Positions 1,659 to 47,960 of a DNA stretch of 52,247 bases are shown piece by piece. Location: positions 23,110 to 75,356 of the forward strand of contig CAYINU010000001.1 in NCBI GenBank assembly GCA_964364855.1. Reading direction: 5' to 3'. The translations under genes were made by a program, and so were the position numbers. The stretch is from an uncultured Candidatus Marinamargulisbacteria bacterium (lineage in GTDB: Bacteria; Margulisbacteria; Marinamargulisbacteria; CAYINU01). Numbering within the stretch: position 1 is the first letter of the stretch; every line of letters begins with the position of its first letter. The notes below the pieces were generated by a model, which did no database searches, was not told where the DNA came from, and was given only the letters and a program-made list of their open reading frames with translations.

Positions 1659-3665
1659 TTAGCGGTGGGCGCGAATGGCGGATAAAATGGCGTCTGTCGT
1701 TAAGCCATATTGGACAGAAAGGTCCTTGGCCGGCGCGCTTTTTCCGAAGTGGTCGACGGTAAAGAGCAGGGGATCCCGGCCCGTCCATCGATGCCACCCA
1801 AAAGAAGACTGGGCTTCAATCACCACAAATTGTTTGGCGGTTGGAGGGATGGTTTGGGTTTGGTAGGCTGGTGGTTGCTGGAGGAATAATTCCCAACTCG
1901 GCATGGACACCACACGGACACGATATGTAGTGGCCAACCCGGTTGCGACCTCGGTGGCTAAGGCCAGCTCAGATCCGGTTGTCAGGATGCAGTAGTCGAT
2001 GTCGTTTCCGGATTCGCTCACTACGACATAGGCCCCTTTTTGCGTCCCGGCAATCGAGGTTGCGGACAAATCCTTAAGGTTTTGGCGAGACAAAATCAAC
2101 GCCGTAGGGCCAGGATTATGCAGGGCGGCAAGCCAGGCACCTTTGACTTCGTTGGCATCGCCGGGGCGGATGACCGTCAGATTGGGCATGGCCCGAAGAG
2201 ACGCCAAATGTTCTACCGGCTGGTGTGTCGGGCCATCTTCGCCCAACAAAATCGAGTCATGGGTAAATTGGTAAATTACCGGTAAATGCATCAGTGCAGC
2301 CAAGCGGATGGCGTTACGCATATAGTCCGAAAAGGTCAGAAAGGTTCCACAAAACGGACGAATCATGCCTTGCAGGGCAAGCCCGTTGGCAATGGTGCCC
2401 ATCGCAAATTCACGAACGCCATATTTGATGTTGCGACCAGCAAATTGACCGCGCGACACAACGCCGCCTTTTTTCATCCAAGTATTGTCCGAGCAGGATA
2501 GGTCGGCGGATCCGCTGATCAGATTGGGCAAGGTATCATGCAATACATCCAACACGCCTTGGGAGGATTTGCGCGTGGCGGCGTTGTCCGGAAGTTTGGC
2601 CTGAGCGACCGCTTCGGCAACAGAGACGGGGAGCTGACGGCCAAGGTAGCTGTCCCACTGCGCGGCCAACTCGGGATGTGCGGCTCGCCAGATGGCAAAA
2701 TCGGACTGCCAGTTGGCATACATGGCGGACTGTTCGGCGCGGCGATTTTTAAAATAAGACCGCACGGAGTCCGGTACAAAAAACAAGGGGGACTCCGGAA
2801 TGCCGTGGGCCGCTTTGGTCAGGGCCACTTCTTTGGCACCGAGGGCTTTTCCGTGGACTTCGCTGGTGCCTTGGTAGGTCGGAGATCCTTTTCCAATGGT
2901 GGTTTTGGCAATTATTAATACGGGCTGATTCCGGATGGTTTTTGCGGTTTGAATCGCCGTGTCGATGGCGTCAAAATCGTGGCCATTGATAGACAATACG
3001 TGCCAACCGTAGGCCATAAACCGTTGGCCGACATTTTCGGTAAAACATTCGGTGGTGGGTCCATCCAGACAGATAGCATTGGCATCATAAATAACGACCA
3101 GATTTCCCAGCCCCAGATGGCCGGCCAGAGATGCCGATTCGGCAGTGACGCCTTCCATCATGCAGCCGTCACCGGCAAGGACATAGACCGTTGGGTCCAG
3201 CAATCCGGTATTTTGCAAGTGAAAAGTGTCGCGAATAAGGTGGTTGCCTAGCGACATCCCCACGGCCATACCGACGCCTTGACCCAGGGGGCCCGTGGTG
3301 GCTTCGATCCCCGGGGCTTCGCCGTACTCCGGATGGCCGGCACAAGGCGAGTGCAGCTGCCGGAAACGTTGGATAGCAGATAAGGACAGATTAAAGCCCG
3401 AGAGATGCAGCGCACTGTAAAGCAGCATGGAGCCATGGCCGGCAGATAGGACAAAACGGTCGCGCGCTACCCAGTCCGGGTGTTTGGGATCGTGATTAAG
3501 TGCAACACCGTACAGATAGGCACCGATTTCAGCACAACCCAAGGGCAGCCCGGGGTGACCACTATTGGCGGCCTCGATGGCGTCCATCGACAATCCCCGA
3601 ATGGTGGCGGCAACGGCGGCGAGGTCTATTTTTTGTGTGGCTGATAGCGGCGCAGGCAAGCTCAT
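1659..3665 (-). CDS. tkt: Transketolase
   Basis: Motifs SGHPG, GDGCMMEG and the C-terminal transketolase domain. Start set at MSLPAPLSATQKID, because the longer track ORF would overlap the mazG 3' end. Confidence 0.9.
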   Translation of the reverse strand: MSLPAPLSATQKIDLAAVAATIRGLSMDAIEAANSGHPGLPLGCAEIGAYLYGVALNHDPKHPDWVARDRFVLSAGHGSMLLYSALHLSGFNLSLSAIQRFRQLHSPCAGHPEYGEAPGIEATTGPLGQGVGMAVGMSLGNHLIRDTFHLQNTGLLDPTVYVLAGDGCMMEGVTAESASLAGHLGLGNLVVIYDANAICLDGPTTECFTENVGQRFMAYGWHVLSINGHDFDAIDTAIQTAKTIRNQPVLIIAKTTIGKGSPTYQGTSEVHGKALGAKEVALTKAAHGIPESPLFFVPDSVRSYFKNRRAEQSAMYANWQSDFAIWRAAHPELAAQWDSYLGRQLPVSVAEAVAQAKLPDNAATRKSSQGVLDVLHDTLPNLISGSADLSCSDNTWMKKGGVVSRGQFAGRNIKYGVREFAMGTIANGLALQGMIRPFCGTFLTFSDYMRNAIRLAALMHLPVIYQFTHDSILLGEDGPTHQPVEHLASLRAMPNLTVIRPGDANEVKGAWLAALHNPGPTALILSRQNLKDLSATSIAGTQKGAYVVVSESGNDIDYCILTTGSELALATEVATGLATTYRVRVVSMPSWELFLQQPPAYQTQTIPPTAKQFVVIEAQSSFGWHRWTGRDPLLFTVDHFGKSAPAKDLSVQYGLTTDAILSAIRAHR

Positions 3666-3694
3666 ACGAGCGCATCTTAACAAAAATGCAGCCT

Positions 3695-4465
3695 TTATCC
3701 AACGGCTCCCTTGGCATGGGTCCATAGGGTTTCCCACGCAGCCGGTGACAAGGCCGCGAGGTCTTGGTTTTGCCGCATGGCTTCGGCCTCCATCCATTCA
3801 AATCGCCGCATAAATTTCTGATTGCTTTTTCGCAGAGATTCCTCGGCATTAATGTTTAACTTTCGGCCCAAATTCACCGCTGCAAATAAGACGTCGCCCA
3901 TCTCGATCTCGGCTTGGCTGCTGTCATTTTGGTTGGCGGCAGCCGCTAGCTCGGCCAATTCCTCGGTGACTTTTTCTGCGGGACCTCGGATGTCTGCCGG
4001 GGCCCAATCAAATCCCAGCCTAGATACTCGTTTTTGAATTTTCTCTGCTTGCAGCAATGCTGGAAAATGCCGGGGAATAGAGGCCAAGACCGATCCCTCT
4101 TTTTCTGTTTTTTTAATCTGCTCCCAGTTGGTCCACACGTCATCCACGGATCCGACCTTGGTGTTGCCAAAGACATGGGGGTGGCGGCGGACCATTTTCT
4201 CCGCTACGCCACTGGCGATGTCGTCGAGTGTAAACCAAGACTGTTCCTGGGCCATCAGCCCCATCATCACGACATGCAGCAACAGATCGCCCAGCTCTTC
4301 GCGAATGGCCTCCCGGTCATGACGCTCAATGGCATCCACCAGTTCATACGCTTCCTCGATGATATAGGGAGTTAGACTTTGAAAGGTTTGGGCTTTGTCC
4401 CAGGGGCATCCGTTGGGGCCACGTAATGCTTGGACTATTTCAACTAATTTTTGATGCCCAGTCAT
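3695..4465 (-). CDS. mazG: Nucleoside triphosphate pyrophosphohydrolase MazG
   Basis: Tandem MazG domains, with CPWDKAQT and EEAYELVDAI...GDLLLHV motifs. Confidence 0.85.
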   Translation of the reverse strand: MTGHQKLVEIVQALRGPNGCPWDKAQTFQSLTPYIIEEAYELVDAIERHDREAIREELGDLLLHVVMMGLMAQEQSWFTLDDIASGVAEKMVRRHPHVFGNTKVGSVDDVWTNWEQIKKTEKEGSVLASIPRHFPALLQAEKIQKRVSRLGFDWAPADIRGPAEKVTEELAELAAAANQNDSSQAEIEMGDVLFAAVNLGRKLNINAEESLRKSNQKFMRRFEWMEAEAMRQNQDLAALSPAAWETLWTHAKGAVG

Positions 4466-8010: not shown

Positions 8011-8050
8011 CTCCGTTATTCTAACCTAGGGTAGGGGGTTGCGTCGCCCC

Positions 8051-10546
8051 ATGATGGAGGGATTTGTCTTGATGCAATGTGCACATTGTTGTTCGGCTAT
8101 TGCGCCGGACGCGGCCCGAGAAGATGGGGGGCATGTGTTTTGTTGTGCGGGCTGTCTGACCGTTTACCAGTTGCTGCACACTTCGAATTTGGCGGATTAC
8201 TACACCATTCGGGAGCGGACGGAAGGGGGCCACTCATTTTTACCGCCTTTACCCGCTGCCCCTGCCGCCGATTTTTTGTATTTGGATGATCCTGCCATCG
8301 AGGTAGGTCGGTCGGGTGGTGACCGATATTTGGATTTTTATGTTGAGGGGATCCAGTGTACGGCATGTGTGTGGCTGTTAGAGTCTCTTGATCGGCTGTG
8401 TCCTGACGTTGCGCAGTCCAGGTTTCGGTCGGGACTCTCGGTATTGCGGCTGTTTTTGAGCCCGACCGGACGATTTTCGGCTGCTGCTGCAACCATGATG
8501 CGCCTGGGGTATCGGCCTCATCCGGTGACTTCATCGGCGCAAGCCAGCCAGTTGCAAGCGGAAGAAAATCGGCGGGAGCTGATACGCGTCGCGATTGCGG
8601 GTGCCTGTGCGGGAAACATGATGCTCTTTTCCGTGGCTTTGTATGCGGGCGCCACGGGACAGGCGGCTCAGATTTTTTTGTGGGCCATCTTGCTTTTGGC
8701 CATTCCCGTTATGGGGTACTGTGCCATTCCCTTTTATAAAAGTGCATGGGCGGCGGCAGGTTTTGATTTTCACGCTCAGCAAAAGCTTCGCGGTCGCCGC
8801 CGTGCGGTTTGTTTTGATTTTCACGCTCAGCAAAAGCTTCGCGGTCGCCGCCGTGCGGCTCCTCGGCGTCGGATGTCGGTGGATGTGCCCATCGTGGCGG
8901 CGTTGGGTATCGGAGTGATCGCTGGGATTCGGGCGACGGTTTTGGGTCAGCACAGCTATTTCGATTCGCTGGCGATGCTGATTTTTTTGTTATTGGCCAG
9001 TCGTTACGGGTTGCGCCGTATCCATCAATCCCATCTACAGGACACAACAACGTCTGGATTTCTGGTGCCGCCGATGGCCAAAAGGCGGATGCCAGACGGC
9101 ACACTGGCCCCAGTCTCGGTTGCTACTCTACAGCCCGGAGACGACATGCTTGTTGAACCCGGAGAGGTTTTTGCTGCGGACGGTGTGTTGGTCGAGGGAA
9201 CGACGGCTGCCAACTGTGCCGCGATGACCGGAGAGTCTTACCCCCAACAGCTGCAAGTGGGCGCATCCGTCTATGCGGGGACGGTCAATTTGGTCGATAC
9301 CGTGGTTATTCGGGTGTCGGCAGTGGGCGAGAAAAGCCGAATGGGACAGTTGCTGGCCGGGATTTTGTCCTACCCAAAATCTAAGATCGAAACGCTGGCA
9401 GATCGATGGGCCATGCGGGTGTTGGGAATGGTCATGGTAGTTGCAGTGATTTTGTTTCTTGCCCTGGGAGTGTTCGGGCACTGGGAAGAGGGATTTCGTC
9501 GGGCGCTGGCCTTGGTGATTATCACGTGTCCTTGTGCATCGGCCATTGCCACACCGCTGGCCTTTTCGTTGGGGCTTAACGCCTGCCGACGTCGGGGTAT
9601 TTTGGTCAAAGGCGGTGACGTCTTAGAGCGAATGGAATCCGTCAAACATATTATCTTAGACAAAACGGGAACCGTTACACAGGGTGATTTTATCGTGACG
9701 AATTGGCCCAAGACACTCACGGACCAGAACGATCTGAGATCCATTGCGGCACTCGAATCGCGGTCGATGCATCCGGTGAGCCACGCGATCCGACGCTATA
9801 TTTTGATTTCTACACTCGGCACTGTGGACCTCCTTGGCAGTGTGGACCCCTTGCCGGACGTAGACGATTTTGCAGAGAAAATTGGCTGGGGAGTATTGGG
9901 TAGTGTAAACGGACATCGGTATCAAATTGGAAAATCAACTACTCAGACATCCCAAAGTGAGACCACTATTTCTGTATGGAAAGATGGAGTGTGGTTGGGC
10001 GATGTGGTATTGGGAGATGCCATTCGTGCCGAGTCCAAGGACAGTGTGGACGCGCTTCGCAAAAAAGGATTTGAGATCACGTTATTGTCGGGAGATCGAC
10101 GGGACGTTGTGGAACGAGTTGGGCGTGAGCTGGGACTGACGCCGAAACAATGCCTGTCGGATCAAACTCCCGAACTCAAATTAGCCTATATCCAATCCCA
10201 TCCGGCTGCGTTAATGGTGGGGGATGGCGCTAACGATGCGGCGGCATTGTCTCGTGCTGAGGTGGGGGTGGCGGTTCATGGTAGTGTCGAAGTCAGTATG
10301 CAGGTGGCCGATGTCTATGTAGCCAGTCCGGGCATTTCTCCCGTGGTGACGCTTCTGACGGTGGCAGGGACAACCATGCGTTGTGTGCGTCGCAATCTGG
10401 TCGCGTCTGCCCTGTACAATGGAGTGGGCATCTCGTTGGCATTGGTAGGTTGGATGTCGCCGCTGGGTGCGGCATTGTTGATGCCATTCAGTTCAGTCAC
10501 TGTATTGTCCGTCGCTCTGGTGACGTTTCGCAGATGGAGATCCTAG
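8051..10546 (+). CDS. ccoI: Copper-translocating P1B-type ATPase, CcoI/FixI-like, with a 34-aa repeat insertion
   Basis: N-terminal CAHCC...FCCAGC metal-binding region, CPC transmembrane motif (ITCPCASA), DKTGTVT phosphorylation site, SMHPVSHAI and GDGANDAAAL. Followed by ccoS and ccoNOQP. Start taken at ATGATG (MMEGFV); the track ORF begins at a TTG at 8039. Confidence 0.85.
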   Translation: MMEGFVLMQCAHCCSAIAPDAAREDGGHVFCCAGCLTVYQLLHTSNLADYYTIRERTEGGHSFLPPLPAAPAADFLYLDDPAIEVGRSGGDRYLDFYVEGIQCTACVWLLESLDRLCPDVAQSRFRSGLSVLRLFLSPTGRFSAAAATMMRLGYRPHPVTSSAQASQLQAEENRRELIRVAIAGACAGNMMLFSVALYAGATGQAAQIFLWAILLLAIPVMGYCAIPFYKSAWAAAGFDFHAQQKLRGRRRAVCFDFHAQQKLRGRRRAAPRRRMSVDVPIVAALGIGVIAGIRATVLGQHSYFDSLAMLIFLLLASRYGLRRIHQSHLQDTTTSGFLVPPMAKRRMPDGTLAPVSVATLQPGDDMLVEPGEVFAADGVLVEGTTAANCAAMTGESYPQQLQVGASVYAGTVNLVDTVVIRVSAVGEKSRMGQLLAGILSYPKSKIETLADRWAMRVLGMVMVVAVILFLALGVFGHWEEGFRRALALVIITCPCASAIATPLAFSLGLNACRRRGILVKGGDVLERMESVKHIILDKTGTVTQGDFIVTNWPKTLTDQNDLRSIAALESRSMHPVSHAIRRYILISTLGTVDLLGSVDPLPDVDDFAEKIGWGVLGSVNGHRYQIGKSTTQTSQSETTISVWKDGVWLGDVVLGDAIRAESKDSVDALRKKGFEITLLSGDRRDVVERVGRELGLTPKQCLSDQTPELKLAYIQSHPAALMVGDGANDAAALSRAEVGVAVHGSVEVSMQVADVYVASPGISPVVTLLTVAGTTMRCVRRNLVASALYNGVGISLALVGWMSPLGAALLMPFSSVTVLSVALVTFRRWRS
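8762..8863. repeat. 51-bp tandem direct repeat, 2 near-identical copies, in frame within ccoI
   Basis: TTTTGATTTTCACGCTCAGCAAAAGCTTCGCGGTCGCCGCCGTGCGG plus a 4-nt joint occurs at 8762-8812 and 8813-8863. It encodes FDFHAQQKLRGRRRA twice. It belongs to the same family as 21600-21752. Confidence 0.9.
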
Positions 10547-20301: not shown

Positions 20302-21590
20302 TACGTGGCCTCCACAACAAAGGCCGCACCTTGTCCGCCACCCACGCACAATGTTGCCAGTCCCACCTGCTTGCCCGCGCGATGCAATTCTTTGGCCAGC
20401 GTAATCAGCAGGCGCGATCCCGTGGTGCCCACCGGATGGCCCAGGGCAATGGCGCCACCGTTCACATTGAGGATGTCCATATTTAAAGTCCCAAGTGGAG
20501 TGGATTGATTGAGGTGGGTTTTGGCAAATTCGGCGGAGCCAAAGGCTTTCTCACATGCCAAGATCTGCGCAGCAAAAGCCTCGTTTATTTCAATGCGCTC
20601 AAAATCTGACAGTTTCATGCCCGTTTTTTGCAGGACCTTGGCAGTCGCGTATAGAGGTCCAAGTCCCATTCGGCTAGGATCCAAACCTGCATAGGCATAG
20701 GCCCGTAAAAAGGCCAGTGGCTTGTATCCCATCGCTTTGGCTTGAGATTCTTTCATGACCACCATTGCGGCAGCACCATCGGTGATGGGACAACTATTTC
20801 CTACCGTGACCGTGCCGTTTTTGCGGTCAAAATAGGGAGGTAATTTGGCTAGTGCTTCCATCGTCTGATTTTCTCGAGGACCTTCGTCTTCGCGCAGGAT
20901 CGCTTTAAAATCAGGGGGGATCGGAAAGGGCATCATTTCTTCTTGCAAGATACCGGCCTTGGTTGCCGCAATGGCCTTTTGGTGGCTCTTTAGAGCATAG
21001 TCGTCCTGCTGGATGCGGGTAATATGAAACTCTCGAGCCAAAATCTCAGCGGTCATACCCATAATCAATCCGCACACGGGATCGGTTAGCCCTTGGATGA
21101 CGCCCACGACGGGCTTTAAAAACCGCAACCGAAAACCGGCCAGCACCCGCAATTTGTCACTGGTCGTTTTGGCCCGCCACAGCCGTTCGTAAAAAGCAGT
21201 CATCTCCGGGCCAAAAATCAAGGGAATATTCGACATCGATTCGGTGCCTCCGATCAGCATGATCTGGGCTTCGCCCGCGTGAATTTTATTCATGGCCGTG
21301 GACACAGACTCCATCCCGGAAGCGCAGTTGCGGTGGACGGTGGCAGCTGGAACAGTTTGCGGCAAACCGGCCTTCAGCGTAATCACACGGGCGATATTGG
21401 CCGCATGGACCGGCTGGGCGACATTGCCTATGACGACTTCGTCAATTTGGTTGCCTTTGAGACCCGTGCGAATCAATACTTCACGTACGACGACCGCGCC
21501 CAGGTCATCGGCTTGAACGGTTTTTAATTTGCCGCCGGCCTTAGAAAAGGGCGTTCGTAAACCATCGATGATGGCAATGCGTTCGTTCAT
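20301..21590 (-). CDS. fadA: Acetyl-CoA C-acyltransferase (3-ketoacyl-CoA thiolase)
   Basis: Active-site contexts NCASGMES, NVNGGAIALGHPVGTTG and CVGGGQGAA. Confidence 0.9.
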   Translation of the reverse strand: MNERIAIIDGLRTPFSKAGGKLKTVQADDLGAVVVREVLIRTGLKGNQIDEVVIGNVAQPVHAANIARVITLKAGLPQTVPAATVHRNCASGMESVSTAMNKIHAGEAQIMLIGGTESMSNIPLIFGPEMTAFYERLWRAKTTSDKLRVLAGFRLRFLKPVVGVIQGLTDPVCGLIMGMTAEILAREFHITRIQQDDYALKSHQKAIAATKAGILQEEMMPFPIPPDFKAILREDEGPRENQTMEALAKLPPYFDRKNGTVTVGNSCPITDGAAAMVVMKESQAKAMGYKPLAFLRAYAYAGLDPSRMGLGPLYATAKVLQKTGMKLSDFERIEINEAFAAQILACEKAFGSAEFAKTHLNQSTPLGTLNMDILNVNGGAIALGHPVGTTGSRLLITLAKELHRAGKQVGLATLCVGGGQGAAFVVEAT

Positions 21591-23548
21591 GGGGCCTCCT
21601 TTTGATTTCTACGCTCGGCAATGGCCTCGCGGTCGCCGCCGTGCGGCTCCTTTTGATTTCTACGCTCGGGAAAGCCCTCGCGGTCGCCGCCGTGCGGCTC
21701 CTTTTGATTTTTACGCTCGGTGATGACCTCGCGGTCGGCGCTGTGCGGCTCCTCGGTGGTGTACATGGATTCGATTTCGGGTTCGTAGCGTTCGGAGATC
21801 TGTTTTCGCTTTAATTTTAGCGTGGGTGTCAATAATCCGTCTTCGATGGAAAACTCGGCAGGCAGTAGCACAAATTTCTTTATTTTTTCAAATTCGGCCA
21901 ATGGAGTTCCCTCTTTTTTTAAGAGGTCGGTAAACAGCCGGATCACCGCGGGATCACGGACCATCTTTTCGGGGGCAGACACGGTAATGCCTTTTCGCCT
22001 CAGGTATCGTTGCACCCAGTCCATCTGAGGTACAATCAGGGCTGTTATGTAATTGCGTTTTTCACCGATGACGTCGACTTGAGCAATGTAGGGACTGTTT
22101 TTGTAAGTTTCTTCGACGACCAAAGGAGCCACTTTTTTGCCGTTGGACAACACGATGATTTCTTTTTTGCGGTCGATAATGCGGATAAACCCTTCCGAAT
22201 CCATCTCGGCGATGTCGCCGGTGTGTAGCCACCCATCAGGATCGATGGCGATCTGGGTTTGACGGTCTCGATGGTAATAGCCCTGCATGATATTGGGTCC
22301 TCGGGCCAGCAGCTCCCCATCATCTGCCACTTTTACCGAGACGCTGGGCAGTGCTTTGCCGACTGTGCCGAATCGATAGGACTTCAAGCGGTTACAGGCA
22401 ATTACCGGTGCGGATTCTGTCATGCCGTATCCTTCGATGACCAACAATCCCATGGCATGGAAAAATTCGGCCAACTCTTTGGATAAGGCTGCACCGCCCG
22501 ACACAAAAAAGCGGATGCGGCCGCCCGTGCGACTTTGGACCTTTTTAAAGGCCAGTCGGTCCGCAATTCGAAACTGGAACCGCAACCAAAATGGCGGGGT
22601 TTTCTCGTTTTTTAAGGCGTTCTGATAAGCAACTCCTACCCGCTGGGCCCAGTCAAAAATGGGTTTTTGAAACGGGCTAAGGTTTTCCAGCAACCGCTGG
22701 CGGATTTTTTCAAAAAGACGGGGTACGCAGATCAAAATGGTAGGCCGGACCTCCTGGAGATTTTCCACCAGTTTTTCTTGGGATTCGGCGTAATAAATAC
22801 TGGCCCCGCAGCCAATGGCTGTGTAATAGCCGACCGTGCGCTCAAAGACATGAGATAACGGCAAAAACGAGACGAGGGAGTCTGCATCGGAAAGCGGGGT
22901 AATGGCCAACAAATCCCGGACGTTGCTCATAAAATTGCCGTGGGTGAGCATGACGCCTTTCGGGCTGCCGGTGGTACCGGACGTGTATACGATGCTGGCG
23001 AGGGTGTCCGGCGTGACGGCGGACAGCGCCTGGCGCACGGCGTCTCGGACATGGGGGCTTTCATGCTTGCCCTCGGTGCGCAATTGTCGAAATCGGTAAA
23101 TAGGCAGCGGACAGTCGGGAACGTCCGGACTTTCGTGGAATAAAATAATGCCTTTTAAAGTCGGACATTCACCGGCCAGGGCGTTAACGGTTTGCAGCTG
23201 CTCGGTCGTTTCGACGGCGAGCATTGTGCTTTCGCTGTCGTTAATAATGTAGGCAATTTCAGCTTCGGACATGGTGGGGTAAATGGGTACATCCGCTGCT
23301 CCCAAACTCAGGACCGCAAAGTCCATCATGGCCCATTCGGGACAGTTGTGGGACCAGATCGCGATATGGTGATTCCCGCGCATTCCGATACGGTACAGGG
23401 ATGCGGCGACATGGAGGACGTCTTCCCAAAAATGGGGGTAGCTAACGGGATGGTAAATCCCATTTTTTTTGGACGCCACAACACATTTGTGTGCGTAGCG
23501 TTGCGCCTGCGCCTCAAAAAGGGCGGTTAATGTTGTGGGGGCCTGCAT
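21587..23548 (-). CDS. fadD: Long-chain fatty-acid-CoA ligase (AMP-binding) with a repeat-encoded C-terminal tail
   Basis: YTSGTTGSPKGVMLTH AMP-binding motif and GYGMTE. The last 50 aa or so (EPHSADREVITERKNQK EPHGGDREGFPERRNQK EPHGGDREAIAERRNQK EAP) are encoded by the 51-bp repeats. The stop overlaps the fadA ATG (ATGA). Confidence 0.85.
   Translation of the reverse strand: MQAPTTLTALFEAQAQRYAHKCVVASKKNGIYHPVSYPHFWEDVLHVAASLYRIGMRGNHHIAIWSHNCPEWAMMDFAVLSLGAADVPIYPTMSEAEIAYIINDSESTMLAVETTEQLQTVNALAGECPTLKGIILFHESPDVPDCPLPIYRFRQLRTEGKHESPHVRDAVRQALSAVTPDTLASIVYTSGTTGSPKGVMLTHGNFMSNVRDLLAITPLSDADSLVSFLPLSHVFERTVGYYTAIGCGASIYYAESQEKLVENLQEVRPTILICVPRLFEKIRQRLLENLSPFQKPIFDWAQRVGVAYQNALKNEKTPPFWLRFQFRIADRLAFKKVQSRTGGRIRFFVSGGAALSKELAEFFHAMGLLVIEGYGMTESAPVIACNRLKSYRFGTVGKALPSVSVKVADDGELLARGPNIMQGYYHRDRQTQIAIDPDGWLHTGDIAEMDSEGFIRIIDRKKEIIVLSNGKKVAPLVVEETYKNSPYIAQVDVIGEKRNYITALIVPQMDWVQRYLRRKGITVSAPEKMVRDPAVIRLFTDLLKKEGTPLAEFEKIKKFVLLPAEFSIEDGLLTPTLKLKRKQISERYEPEIESMYTTEEPHSADREVITERKNQKEPHGGDREGFPERRNQKEPHGGDREAIAERRNQKEAP
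21600..21752. repeat. 51-bp tandem direct repeat, 3 copies, same family as 8762-8863
   Basis: Units lie at 21600-21650, 21651-21701 and 21702-21752 (TTTTGATTTCTACGCTCGG..N..CCTCGCGGTCGCCGCCGTGCGGCTCC); the third copy is more diverged. The plus-strand orientation is the same as at the ccoI locus, but here the coding strand is minus. Confidence 0.9.
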
Positions 23549-33604: not shown

Positions 33605-34086
33605 ATGTTCCGTCGATTTATTAGACCTGCTTTATCTAGGAGTTTTTTTATTTTCGGCCCACGGGGAAGCGGCAAGATCTTGGTGTTAAGCGTGCGTTGG
33701 ACAGAACATTAAGCTCTGAATTGTCTCCGAATACCTACGGTTATGAAAAGGCGTTCGAGCATTTTTTTATATTAGAGCTCTATCGCTTAAATGTGTACTT
33801 CAAGCTAGACCTCAGATTGTATTATCTGCGGACCAAAGACCATTTGGATTATTACCATCCCCAGCGGCACGTTATTGTAACGAATCATGTGATGGTATTT
33901 GCTGACCGTGACGTTGATTTTACCCAATTGGATCTGGATGCTAGCAAGGTCATATACAGCGGCGGCTCTTTAAAGGATCCAGATGAAGTAGCCCGGAATC
34001 GTTTTGATGATCAACGATTAAGCGGTTTTAAAAATGTGGTCGTCTGTCTCTCGTCAAGGGATACGATGCCGCAAAAACAGCCCTGA
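33605..34086 (+). pseudogene. Decayed AAA/DUF4143 ATPase paralog (frameshifted, internally deleted, 3' end replaced by repeat)
   Basis: The ORF from ATG 33605 gives MFRRFIRPALSRSFFIFGPRGSGKILV (Walker A) and stops at 33710. A different frame from 33697 gives ...YEKAFEHFFILELYRL...LRLYYLRTKD, which resembles the DUF4143 C-terminal motif. The whole ATPase core between them is missing. The reading frame ends inside repeat module X at 34084-34086. Confidence 0.55.
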
Positions 34087-34322
34087 GCTGAGCGAAGACG
34101 AATTTACTTCGACCGAACGGGGCGAGTGCTCGCGAGCTACTGCGAGCCCCTTACTAATTAGTGGACACATTTCTGAGCGAAGCGAAGCAAGGCCCAAAGG
34201 GCCGGAGAGGTAATTAGATTGTGTGGACTGGAAACAGCCCTGAGCTGAGCGAAGACGAATTTATTTCGGCTGAGCGGGGCGAGTGCTCGTGAGCTACTGC
34301 GAGCATGCCGAGCCAATACAAA
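34075..34322. repeat. Modular hairpin-rich repeat block directly 3' of tRNA-Met (modules X-Y-Z-X)
   Basis: The 73-bp module X is at 34075-34147 and 34232-34304. The 38-bp module Y (CTGAGCGAAGCGAAGCAAGGCCCAAAGGGCCGGAGAGG) is at 34173-34210. Linker Z (TAATTAGATTGTGTGGACTGG) is at 34211-34231. The stretch 34173-34316 is nearly identical to 47610-47747. Confidence 0.85.
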
Positions 34323-34399
34323 TGGTAGCGGCGACTGGGGTCGAACCAGTGACACCACGGGTATGAACCGTGTGCTCTAACCACCTGAGCTACGCCGCC
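34323..34399 (-). tRNA. tRNA-Met (anticodon CAT), elongator-like, CCA encoded
   Basis: Minus strand reads GGCGGCGTAGCTCAGGTGGTTAGAGCACACGGTTCATACCCGTGGTGTCACTGGTTCGACCCCAGTCGCCGCTACCA. It folds as a cloverleaf with a 7-bp acceptor, GTAGCTCAG D arm, anticodon loop TTCATAC and GGTTCGA T loop. It lacks the initiator features (no C1 mismatch, no GGG/CCC anticodon stem). A lysidine-modified tRNA-Ile cannot be excluded. Confidence 0.9.
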
Positions 34400-47420: not shown

Positions 47421-47512
47421 GGGCGCATTGTATCAACCGATCGTCTGCTTTCGCAATTGGAAAAATCAGCCTCCGGTTAATTTTATAACCTGCGCTATAT
47501 ACGTCCATATCT

Positions 47513-47755
47513 CTGAGCGAAGCGAAGCAAGGCCCAAAGGGCCGGAGAGGGGGAGGCTCAAATCTGGCTTTGCCAGTTTGAGGGGGCGACGCGAGCCCCA
47601 TATAAATAAGAAGCGAAACAAGGCCCAAAAGGCCGGAGAGGTAATTAGATTGTGTGGACTGGAAACAGCCCTGAGCTGAGCGAAGACGAATTTACTTCGG
47701 CTGAGCGGGGCGAGTGCTCGTGAGCTACTGCGAGCATGCCGAGCCAAATATAAAC
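47513..47755. repeat. Modular hairpin-rich repeat block directly 3' of tRNA-Lys (modules Y-hairpin-Y'-Z-X)
   Basis: Module Y is at 47513-47550. A strong hairpin CTCAAA(T)CTGGC-TTT-GCCAGTTTGAG lies at about 47557-47581. The Y variant is at 47610-47641, Z at 47642-47662 and X at 47663-47735. The shared tail ATGCCGAGCCAA follows. The block is nearly identical to 34173-34316. Confidence 0.85.
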
Positions 47756-47828
47756 TGATCCGGGCGGGAGTCGAACCCGCGGCCACTTGATTAAAAGTCA
47801 AGTGCTCTACCAACTGAGCTACCGGATC
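47756..47828 (-). tRNA. tRNA-Lys (anticodon TTT), CCA not encoded
   Basis: Minus strand reads GATCCGGTAGCTCAGTTGGTAGAGCACTTGACTTTTAATCAAGTGGCCGCGGGTTCGACTCCCGCCCGGATCA. It has a 7-bp acceptor, D arm, anticodon stem CTTGA/TCAAG with loop CTTTTAA, and a GGTTCGA T loop. Confidence 0.9.
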
Positions 47829-47960
47829 AAAACAGGTCAAAATTAACCGAATGTCACTAAAAGCGCAAGCGCGCCTCATCCCTCAAGCGCTGGGATCATT
47901 GCTTGCAAAACAGGCATCAAAAAGTCTAATATGAGAAGCAGCGTTTCCATACCACAGTCG

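Follow-up and report, generated by a model that had tools for sequence, protein, structure and literature searches.

Small repeats that operons and genes tolerate are known mainly from mycobacteria (MIRUs, short for mycobacterial interspersed repetitive units), from Rickettsia (the Rickettsia palindromic elements, RPEs) and from a few proteobacteria. Here we describe a 51-bp repeat that occupies, in three tandem copies, the fadD-fadA junction in a stretch of 52,247 nucleotides (the window) from an uncultured groundwater Margulisiibacteriota bacterium (assembly GCA_964364855.1, contig CAYINU010000001.1). According to two later papers that mention MIRUs (PMC12548453 and PMC3184786, which each cite Supply et al. 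1997), these are tandem units of 40-100 bp located in operons. As the passage on them in PMC12548453 has it, MIRUs insert at start codons, and the stop codon of their open reading frame (ORF) shares bases with the start downstream (−4) "with minimal impact on expression"; filled and empty sites as well as tetranucleotide flanking repeats also figure in these papers (PMC12548453; PMC3184786). The small ORF of a MIRU begins over the stop codon of the gene upstream, and the copies occupy intergenic regions of operons. For coupling, the −4 overlap is standard (PMC12548453). The RPEs, as summarised from Ogata et al. 2000 in PMC10969869 and PMC3184786, are single palindromic elements of ~100-150 bp that encode one conserved peptide in one frame, and other repeats extend the 3' ends of genes or sit in frame within them (PMC3184786, PMC10969869). 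REP sequences are defined by a 5' GT[AG]G located 0-2 nt from the foot of a hairpin with a 7-20 bp stem, by inverted doublets, by an extragenic position and by the RAYT protein (PMC6006769).

The repeat of the window resembles MIRUs in several respects. It forms direct tandem units at several loci (a 51-bp period in 3.1, 1.9 and 1.7 copies; 4 loci in ~66 kb), and at fadD-fadA, though only there, it lies where two cistrons of a polycistronic operon meet, with a −4 stop/start overlap. A filled site is represented by 102 nt in a copper ATPase gene of the window (ATPase site 1) and the empty one by contig L119 of a relative, and the repeat contains G+C-rich internal inverted repeats. We consider the array to be, probably, a MIRU-like minisatellite that the operon tolerates.

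Results

Three 51-bp units at the fadD-fadA junction

The first-pass annotation of the window had reported a three-unit 51-bp array at this junction, and both Tandem Repeats Finder (TRF) and three assemblies bore it out. TRF delimited the repeat at 21596-21753, with a period of 51, 3.1 copies, 90% matches and zero indels. A 19-nt core of the unit, CGCGGTCGCCGCCGTGCGG, was found five times in the window when up to 3 mismatches were allowed, compared with 0.06 expected, and five or more matches were reached in 0 of 100 shuffles; therefore, the array is not a product of chance. A second, independent assembly of 12 kb from the same groundwater well contains the same three units (99.9% identical, 7 mismatches, 0 gaps), and a FadD variant from a third contig, different at 1 residue, carries the same array. 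Because the organisation is the same in these two further sources, an assembly artefact is unlikely.

Coordinates of the units, set by the FadD register, are collected in Table 1, where u2 is the promoter-proximal and u4 the distal unit. The AAGGAG motif forms the closing bases of each fadD unit. That one unit is visibly more diverged, as had been annotated, proved real, but its place did not: the most diverged unit is u2, which has 45 and 44 of 51 positions in common with the other two. The distal u4 is identical at 50 of 51 positions to a copy on another contig of the same organism (the P0004 locus, see below), and at 48 and 45 positions to its neighbouring units. Since u4 is closer to the P0004 copy than to its neighbours, exchange between loci is favoured over purely local duplication, and the stepwise amplification proposed before is too simple.

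Table 1. Features of the repeat family and its host genes (positions in the window).
Feature	Position	Strand	Basis or remark
Three tandem 51-bp (17-codon) units, head-to-tail	21599-21751	-	TRF, sequence, alignments, nhmmer E = 4e-15 to 2e-17
Units in FadD register: u2; u3; u4	21701-21751; 21650-21700; 21599-21649	-	FadD register used for unit boundaries
Translated tail units EPHSADREVITERKNQK / EPHGGDREGFPERRNQK / EPHGGDREAIAERRNQK	u2 / u3 / u4	-	then EAP and stop
Upstream boundary octamer CCGAGGAG	21749-21756	-	sequence comparison among loci
Hairpin H1 of u4, GCCGC-ACG-GCGGC	21635-21647	-	same positions in every unit
Hairpin H2 of u4, CGC-GA-GGC-CAUU-GCC-GA-GCG	21612-21631	-	same positions in every unit
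fadD, long-chain acyl-CoA synthetase, 653 aa	21587-23548	-	Pfam AMP-binding and AMP-binding_C_3
fadA, thiolase, 429 aa	20301-21590	-	start MNERIAIIDGLRTP; relatives' starts MKERIAIIDGVRTP and MMKERLAIVEGVRTP match
Junction AAGGAGG-CCCC-ATGA	21587-21601	-	sequence and in-silico excision
Shine-Dalgarno-like AAGGAGG	21595-21601	-	its AAG is the u4 end; 4 nt (CCCC) before fadA ATG
FadD TGA / fadA ATG	21587-21589 / 21588-21590	-	overlap as ATGA
ATPase site 1, two units	8760-8861	-	inside FixI/CcoI-type P1B copper ATPase ORF 8039-10546 (+)
ATPase site 2, remnant of older unit	9800-9835	-	same ATPase, nhmmer E = 0.003

The array encodes a tail on FadD

The FadD of the window ends in ...ERYEPEIESMYTTEEPHSADREVITERKNQKEPHGGDREGFPERRNQKEPHGGDREAIAERRNQKEAP followed by the stop codon. 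Its conserved body stops at about residue 597-600, and the repeat units supply residues 601-651. The Pfam profile AMP-binding_C_3 was matched over positions 2-124 of 124, with residue 600 as the last matched residue, and the alignment to PDB 6oz1, the best solved homologue, reaches FadD residue 597, which corresponds to the penultimate residue of 6oz1. From the TPTLK motif to the C-terminus, 115 homologues have a median of 26 amino acids, compared with 80 in the window FadD. The extension of FadD past the usual end of such ligases, and a frame that stays open through all units and stops in an ATGA overlap with fadA, had both been annotated and are confirmed, the tail adding ~53 amino acids past the conserved end. 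Orthologues with the same tail, or a stop codon or frameshift before the repeats, had been named as evidence that would speak against this; a tail of the EPHGGDRE type was found in 0 of the 115 FadD homologues, and neither a stop nor a frameshift occurs there in the three assemblies. An exhaustive HMMER search with the 51-residue tail against 1.84 billion representative proteins returned P0001, the protein of the P0004 locus, as the sole other carrier.

AlphaFold2 modelled FadD with a mean predicted local distance difference test score (pLDDT) of 85.3; the final confident helix spans residues 589-597, and residues 603-653 have a pLDDT <50. Pairwise differences between units are almost all nonsynonymous in the FadD frame (nonsynonymous/synonymous 3/0, 5/1 and 6/0), and the variable tripeptides A-I-A, G-F-P and V-I-T are the translation of compensated changes in hairpin stems described below. 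The same DNA is translated in three ways among the loci of the family, as EPHGGDRE..., as FDFHAQQKLRGRRRA and as ILISTLG.... Because the family is read in three frames and in both orientations, the FadD peptide is a by-product, neither a designed tail nor a new protein domain. Charged and unconstrained, the tail is probably disordered, and it is presumably translated and harmless.

Translation signals at the junction

The operon has the order fadD-fadA-fadB-acyl-CoA dehydrogenase and belongs to beta-oxidation. In relatives the gene order UPF0182, fadD, fadA, fadB, acyl-CoA dehydrogenase is preserved; their FadD ends 1-6 residues past ...(M/L)Y, and their fadD-fadA spacers are 12 nt and 45 nt long and carry GGAG(G), which precedes the fadA ATG by 7-9 nt. 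When exactly 153 nt were excised in silico from the window, the remaining sequence encoded ...ESMYTTEEAP before the stop codon, kept the same ATGA overlap, and placed GAGGAGG 4 nt before the ATG. The first-pass annotation had held that the element replaced an intergenic region; despite the spacers of the relatives this is not needed, since the excision restores both the overlap and GAGGAGG. Its observation that every unit carries a Shine-Dalgarno (SD)-like motif, with one located 4 nt before the fadA ATG, was correct.

GGAG is present on either side of the fadD array, and for this reason the SD beside fadA may be native; it may equally be element-borne, and this sequence does not decide between the two. 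SD-like matches of 4 nt within 15 nt of the start were found at 8 of the 44 gene starts in the window, which is about the chance rate, and the only AGGAGG among these starts is that of fadA. The −4 overlap of the ATGA type is the commonest spacing between co-oriented genes of the window (6 pairs). Initiation of fadA presumably relies on coupling or on the SD, and −4 coupling alone could be sufficient; the annotated view that the element drives this initiation is thereby weakened.

Copies in a copper ATPase and in an unrelated gene

A profile of the unit was searched with nhmmer in the available DNA of this Margulisiibacteriota lineage, which amounts to ~66 kb of the host genome and 6.4 kb of the relative. 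Matches were the 3 units at fadD, 2 units at ATPase site 1, a remnant at ATPase site 2, 1.7 units at the P0004 locus and 1 unit at site 2 of the relative. No further copies were detected by this profile in the remaining DNA of the host and the relative or in the fad loci of more distant Margulisbacteria, nor in the DNA fetched past either end of the window.

The FixI/CcoI-type copper ATPase adjoins cbb3 oxidase genes. Its two units at site 1 show perfect periodicity over 99 nt (1.9 copies) and are identical at 49 of 51 positions in the FadD register. They run opposite to the host gene, lie in frame and are translated as GFDFHAQQKLRGRRRAV / CFDFHAQQKLRGRRRAA; they finish in CAAA or CCTG, not GGAG. 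The ATPase of the relative, P0125, was found by protein search on contig L119 of a Joint Genome Institute (JGI) metagenome, and is 84% identical to that of the window (BLASTP, gaps included); over aligned codons the identity is 88.7% for amino acids and 87.7% for nucleotides. P0125 is without exactly 34 amino acids, or 102 nt (2 x 51), at site 1, where it reads FYKSALA-AVRRRRMSVDV, the hyphen marking the site. Removal of 8760-8861 in silico yields FYKSAWAAAARRRMSVDV; this sequence is collinear both with the relative and with CopA structures that have been solved. No target-site duplication was detectable at ATPase site 1, and no flanking tetranucleotide repeat is present there.

The remnant at site 2 is translated in the third frame (ILISTLGTV...). 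At this site the relative has all 51 nt of a unit, and 18 nt have been lost from the window copy. Since site 2 is common to the relative and site 1 is not, one insertion is old and shared, the other young and lineage-specific. The repeat is inserted DNA, because the relative lacks exactly 102 nt, excision restores collinearity, and site 2 is complete in the relative. The host gene is under purifying selection, with 155 synonymous versus 90 replacement codon differences between the window and the relative. At the empty site 1 of the relative (L119 ~700-760, fadD-sense), which reads CCGGCGGCGACGCAC, the string GGCGGCGAC is common with the repeat core CACGGCGGCGACCGCG. We considered this similarity as a trace of homology-driven insertion or microhomology, but it is inseparable from chance in an Arg/Ala-rich, GC-rich stretch, and no claim is made from it.

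The fourth locus (P0001/P0004) contains 1.7 copies at the 3' end of the gene for an unrelated 476-residue hypothetical protein, a gene without a co-oriented neighbour; the host of P0001 is, by NCBI annotation, a Candidatus Margulisiibacteriota metagenome-assembled genome. Its second unit ends after 35 nt (L114 1007-1041), so that the array is ~86 nt, a length not divisible by three, and P0004 may have had its native C-terminus replaced out of frame by its final 10 residues (DSSSGCCSVS).

The repeat has thus been dispersed to at least four loci, in three frames and in both orientations relative to its hosts, with a filled site set against an empty one and with compensatory changes in its stems; all four loci lie within ORFs. 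The hexamer [A/G]AGGAG is found at one and the same boundary in all four. The boundary octamer at fadD recurs at the same boundary elsewhere, where ATPase site 1 has CCGAGGAG, site 2 has CCAAGGAG and P0004 has CGAAGGAG. It is either a piece of the element or a target that the element prefers. The three loci of the window share the same absolute orientation regardless of the host strand, in DNA whose GC skew is positive almost throughout; with n=3 this is not significant.

Relatives of the unit were sought more widely. No match was obtained in Rfam, in blastn searches of plasmids and phages (distant mode) or in the JGI metagenome scans; Rfam gave zero families at the gathering threshold and chance-level matches only at E <=10. 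In the JGI scan a two-part pattern returned 0 matches, and a looser pattern returned L123 alone, a chance match without H1 or stem pairing in a region that codes for a signal peptide. A contig scan with the 20-mer CCGCACGGCGGCGACCGCGA gave 112 loci in a high-GC genome, all of them lone chance matches from which the rest of the unit was absent. A protein query made from four joined open frames was swamped by low complexity, with P0001 as its sole return and the window FadD itself missed. By these searches the repeat family looks lineage-restricted and is probably of low copy number.

Two conserved hairpins per unit

Each unit can form two hairpins, H1 with a stem of 5 bp and H2 with stems of 3+3 bp around a GA/GA internal loop, the latter having the general form CGC-GA-xxx-loop-x'x'x'-GA-GCG. 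Across seven units 97.4% of the cells were paired, a value matched in 1 of 500 shuffles, and 4 of the 11 pairs were altered on both sides, a count matched in 7 of 500 shuffles. When registers were slid by 1-3 columns, at most 52% of cells remained paired. The old copy of the relative contributes two doubly compensated pairs in H1. Since the differences between units are nonsynonymous and yet the hairpins stay paired, the constraint, as far as the alignments tell, is on the nucleic acid and not on the peptide. One candidate, that the whole array is a single large structured RNA, was ruled out by its fold (z = 0.26).

Read on the plus strand, every unit shows a GC hairpin of 5 bp and then a run of T (GCCGCCGTGCGGC-TCCTTTTGAT), a putative terminator-like arrangement found at 6 sites compared with 1.4 expected. 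Because one strand looks terminator-like, the orientation of a unit relative to the host transcript may matter. The fad operon carries what would be the non-terminating orientation, and the ATPase copies lie in the predicted terminator-like orientation within coding sequence.

Other features of the window and its relatives

A second, unrelated dispersed repeat was observed at 34075-34316 and 47506-47747. Its copies have a common block of ~140 nt that is 98% identical, contain internal sub-repeats and GGCCC...GGGCC hairpins, and directly adjoin the 3' ends of the minus-strand tRNA-Met (34323-34399) and tRNA-Lys (47755-47829). In the transketolase ORF (1659-3797, minus strand), the window has TCG (Ser) at about 2491 where GCA_038059735.1 has TAG (stop; L121 position 3415), which splits the transketolase there into gene calls of 391 and 272 amino acids. 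The difference is either a strain-level nonsense polymorphism or a sequencing error. In another Margulisbacteria genome (GCA_009691415.1, L116 2447-3073), a gene for 208 amino acids with a faint match to Y1_Tnp (PF01797) is located between UPF0182 and fadD. The equivalent position of the window holds an FmdB-type zinc-ribbon gene, and the L116 locus is without the 51-bp unit.

Discussion

Of known systems, MIRUs and in-frame repeats such as RPEs come nearest to the array. Its likeness to MIRUs is one of described architecture, and strict membership is not claimed; the host belongs to an unrelated phylum, and few copies are known. Unlike a MIRU, the array has no separate small ORF, and the upstream fadD itself reads through it. 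Three of the four loci are off cistron junctions, and two of them sit inside the ATPase gene in the opposite orientation. To be set beside the flanking tetranucleotides of MIRUs is GGAG on both sides of the array at fadD, but none at ATPase site 1. The repeat also recalls RPEs and the in-frame copies of BRE, RUP, BOX and ERIC, in so far as the summaries cited above describe them, in that selfish DNA is fused in frame, internally or as a 3' extension, with the host gene intact. In-frame insertion of this RPE-like kind is seen at ATPase sites 1 and 2, in the FadD tail and in the P0004 tail. It differs from RPEs, as these are summarised, in its 51-bp length, its tandem arrangement, its two short hairpins and its use of three frames.

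With REP, BIME and REPIN sequences (PMC6006769, PMC3116915) the repeat shares G+C-rich hairpins, compensatory variation, dispersed copies, possible effects on mRNA and the lack of an obvious target duplication. Unlike in REPs, its sole GTAG, found on the fadD-sense strand (u3, u4), is located at the 3' foot of H2, and the opposite strand has none; the stems are of 5 bp and 3+3 bp, the tandems are direct, all copies are within ORFs, and no RAYT was seen among the window ORFs scanned. Held against elements derived from IS200/IS605, whose two ends carry subterminal hairpins and which insert, without duplicating the target, 3' of a fixed tetra- or pentanucleotide, the repeat has two hairpins per unit, [A/G]AGGAG at one boundary and no duplication at site 1; the empty site of the relative is without GGAG, and no TnpA was seen.

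We therefore read the fadD-fadA locus, with a probability of about 0.72, as three tandem units of an interspersed 51-bp repeat that is specific to this lineage, a minisatellite of MIRU-like kind tolerated as operon-neutral. Tolerance would follow from a unit length divisible by three and from a frame without stop codons in the phase of fadD, which would give the ~53-residue tail. Translation would end at the TGA over the fadA ATG (−4) with AAGGAGG still 4 nt upstream, and fadA would be translated through coupling, through the SD, or through both. The array lies in the orientation that does not look terminator-like, and it presumably came by insertion or expansion, not by local origin.

Several points weigh against this reading. 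The nearest FadD found is only 52% identical, and no empty fadD-fadA site of a close relative was found, so that insertion there is argued by analogy with ATPase site 1. Full or partial units known number 8, which makes the basis for family size and for the covariation statistics a small and partly non-independent sample, and the sequences used to examine the pairing of the hairpins were those from which their structure had been derived. The stability of the hairpins is unexceptional (z −0.3 to −1.9), as is that of the whole array at the z value given above. A low pLDDT of the tail is expected regardless, as the alignment has no depth there. By our own calculation an open frame of 17 codons has a probability of (61/64)^17, or ~0.44, and four or more of six a probability of ~0.24; the four open frames of the unit were accordingly rejected as a meaningful feature, being not statistically unusual.

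Among the alternatives, the one that survives best, though we find it doubtful, is that the element replaced a native spacer and was co-opted, so that fadA now needs the AAGGAGG borne by the repeat. Relatives have true spacers (12 and 45 nt) that each carry a GGAG(G) of their own, which would fit such a replacement. So would AAGGAG as the conserved 3' end of both the fadD and the P0004 units, as well as the AGGAGG that fadA alone has among the 44 starts. If the element is defined as CCGCAC...AAAAGGAG and was inserted after a native GGAG, the SD beside the ATG would be element-derived. Excision, however, leaves an equally good GAGGAGG-CCCC-ATGA, and with GGAG on both sides the native copy is undecidable. 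SD motifs are at about the chance rate in the window, which makes dependence on them doubtful, −4 coupling alone may suffice (PMC12548453), and the ATPase units finish in CAAA or CCTG instead of GGAG.

It is unlikely that the repeat was spread by a single-strand, hairpin-guided HUH/Y1 enzyme of the RAYT-REP or IS200/IS605 type, without duplication and next to a GGAG-type motif. In favour of it are the two conserved hairpins per unit with their compensatory changes, the exact 2 x 51-nt insertion without detectable target duplication at ATPase site 1, and the [A/G]AGGAG that borders all four loci on the same side. So are the shared absolute orientation of the three window loci on a strand of constant GC skew, and the PF01797 match in the gene beside fadD of the distant relative L116. 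Against it, the repeat fails the REP definition (PMC6006769), having no 5' GT[AG]G, short stems, direct tandems and a genic position. In the window ORFs that were scanned with Pfam, no transposase of the Y1 or any other type was detected, L116 is without copies of the unit and its PF01797 match is faint, the empty site of the relative is without GGAG, and slippage, unequal recombination or gene conversion would account equally well for the low copy number. Somewhat less likely still is a specific form of the idea, in which a duplication-free, hairpin-guided, 17-codon minisatellite inserts next to GGAG-type (SD-like) motifs, would thus home to ribosome-binding sites and cistron junctions, and regenerates the SD and the −4 coupling displaced by it through the AAGGAG at its far end. 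If this were true, the element would have evolved to be invisible to operon expression, convergently with MIRUs, in a sister lineage of Cyanobacteria, and its mobilising enzyme would possibly be an undescribed one.

To about the same low degree we credit the array with being a cis-regulatory RNA, whose tandem hairpins would tune mRNA stability or the translation of fadD and fadA, as REP/BIME sequences do in E. coli operons. Covariation accompanies the conservation of the hairpins, folding of the fadD-sense strand is favoured by a G.U pair and tandem G.A mismatches, and in the centroid fold with the array present the SD and the ATG are mostly unpaired. REPs have also been reported to raise mRNA stability and to affect translation (PMC6006769). 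The folds, however, are no more stable than those of shuffled sequences (z = 0.26; z = −0.02), the hairpins would be melted by translating ribosomes, and Rfam yielded no matching family. Moreover, the ATPase copies, the old copy of the relative included, are antisense to the host mRNA and yet paired, which argues for a DNA-level or selfish constraint.

It is highly improbable that the tail serves FadD as a functional module under selection, in binding or localisation for instance: the tail is identical in the three assemblies, and a similar tail ends P0004, but its variation is nonsynonymous, other frames are used elsewhere, 0 of 115 homologues and only one other protein among 1.84 billion representatives carry it, and it is predicted to be unstructured. 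An assembly artefact, or a collapsed or expanded repeat, as a short-read metagenome with ~4x coverage (judged from contig names) might produce, is the least credible account of all, given that three independent assemblies differing by single-nucleotide polymorphisms agree, without gaps, on three non-identical units whose differences anchor the assembly.

On the preferred reading of a tolerated, MIRU-like minisatellite, the fadD-fadA array is a further example of known gene-safe selfish DNA. It offers a compact example in a barely studied candidate phylum, with a filled and an empty site and an old and a young copy in one gene. In the same set of loci one DNA unit is read in three frames, and compensatory changes place the constraint on its hairpins. 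For annotation it carries a warning, as the ~53-residue tail of FadD, the 34-residue insert of the ATPase and the tail of P0004 are read-through of a repeat and not protein domains. If insertion next to GGAG with regeneration of the SD were borne out across the genome, the way in which MIRU-like elements target cistron junctions would become directly testable.

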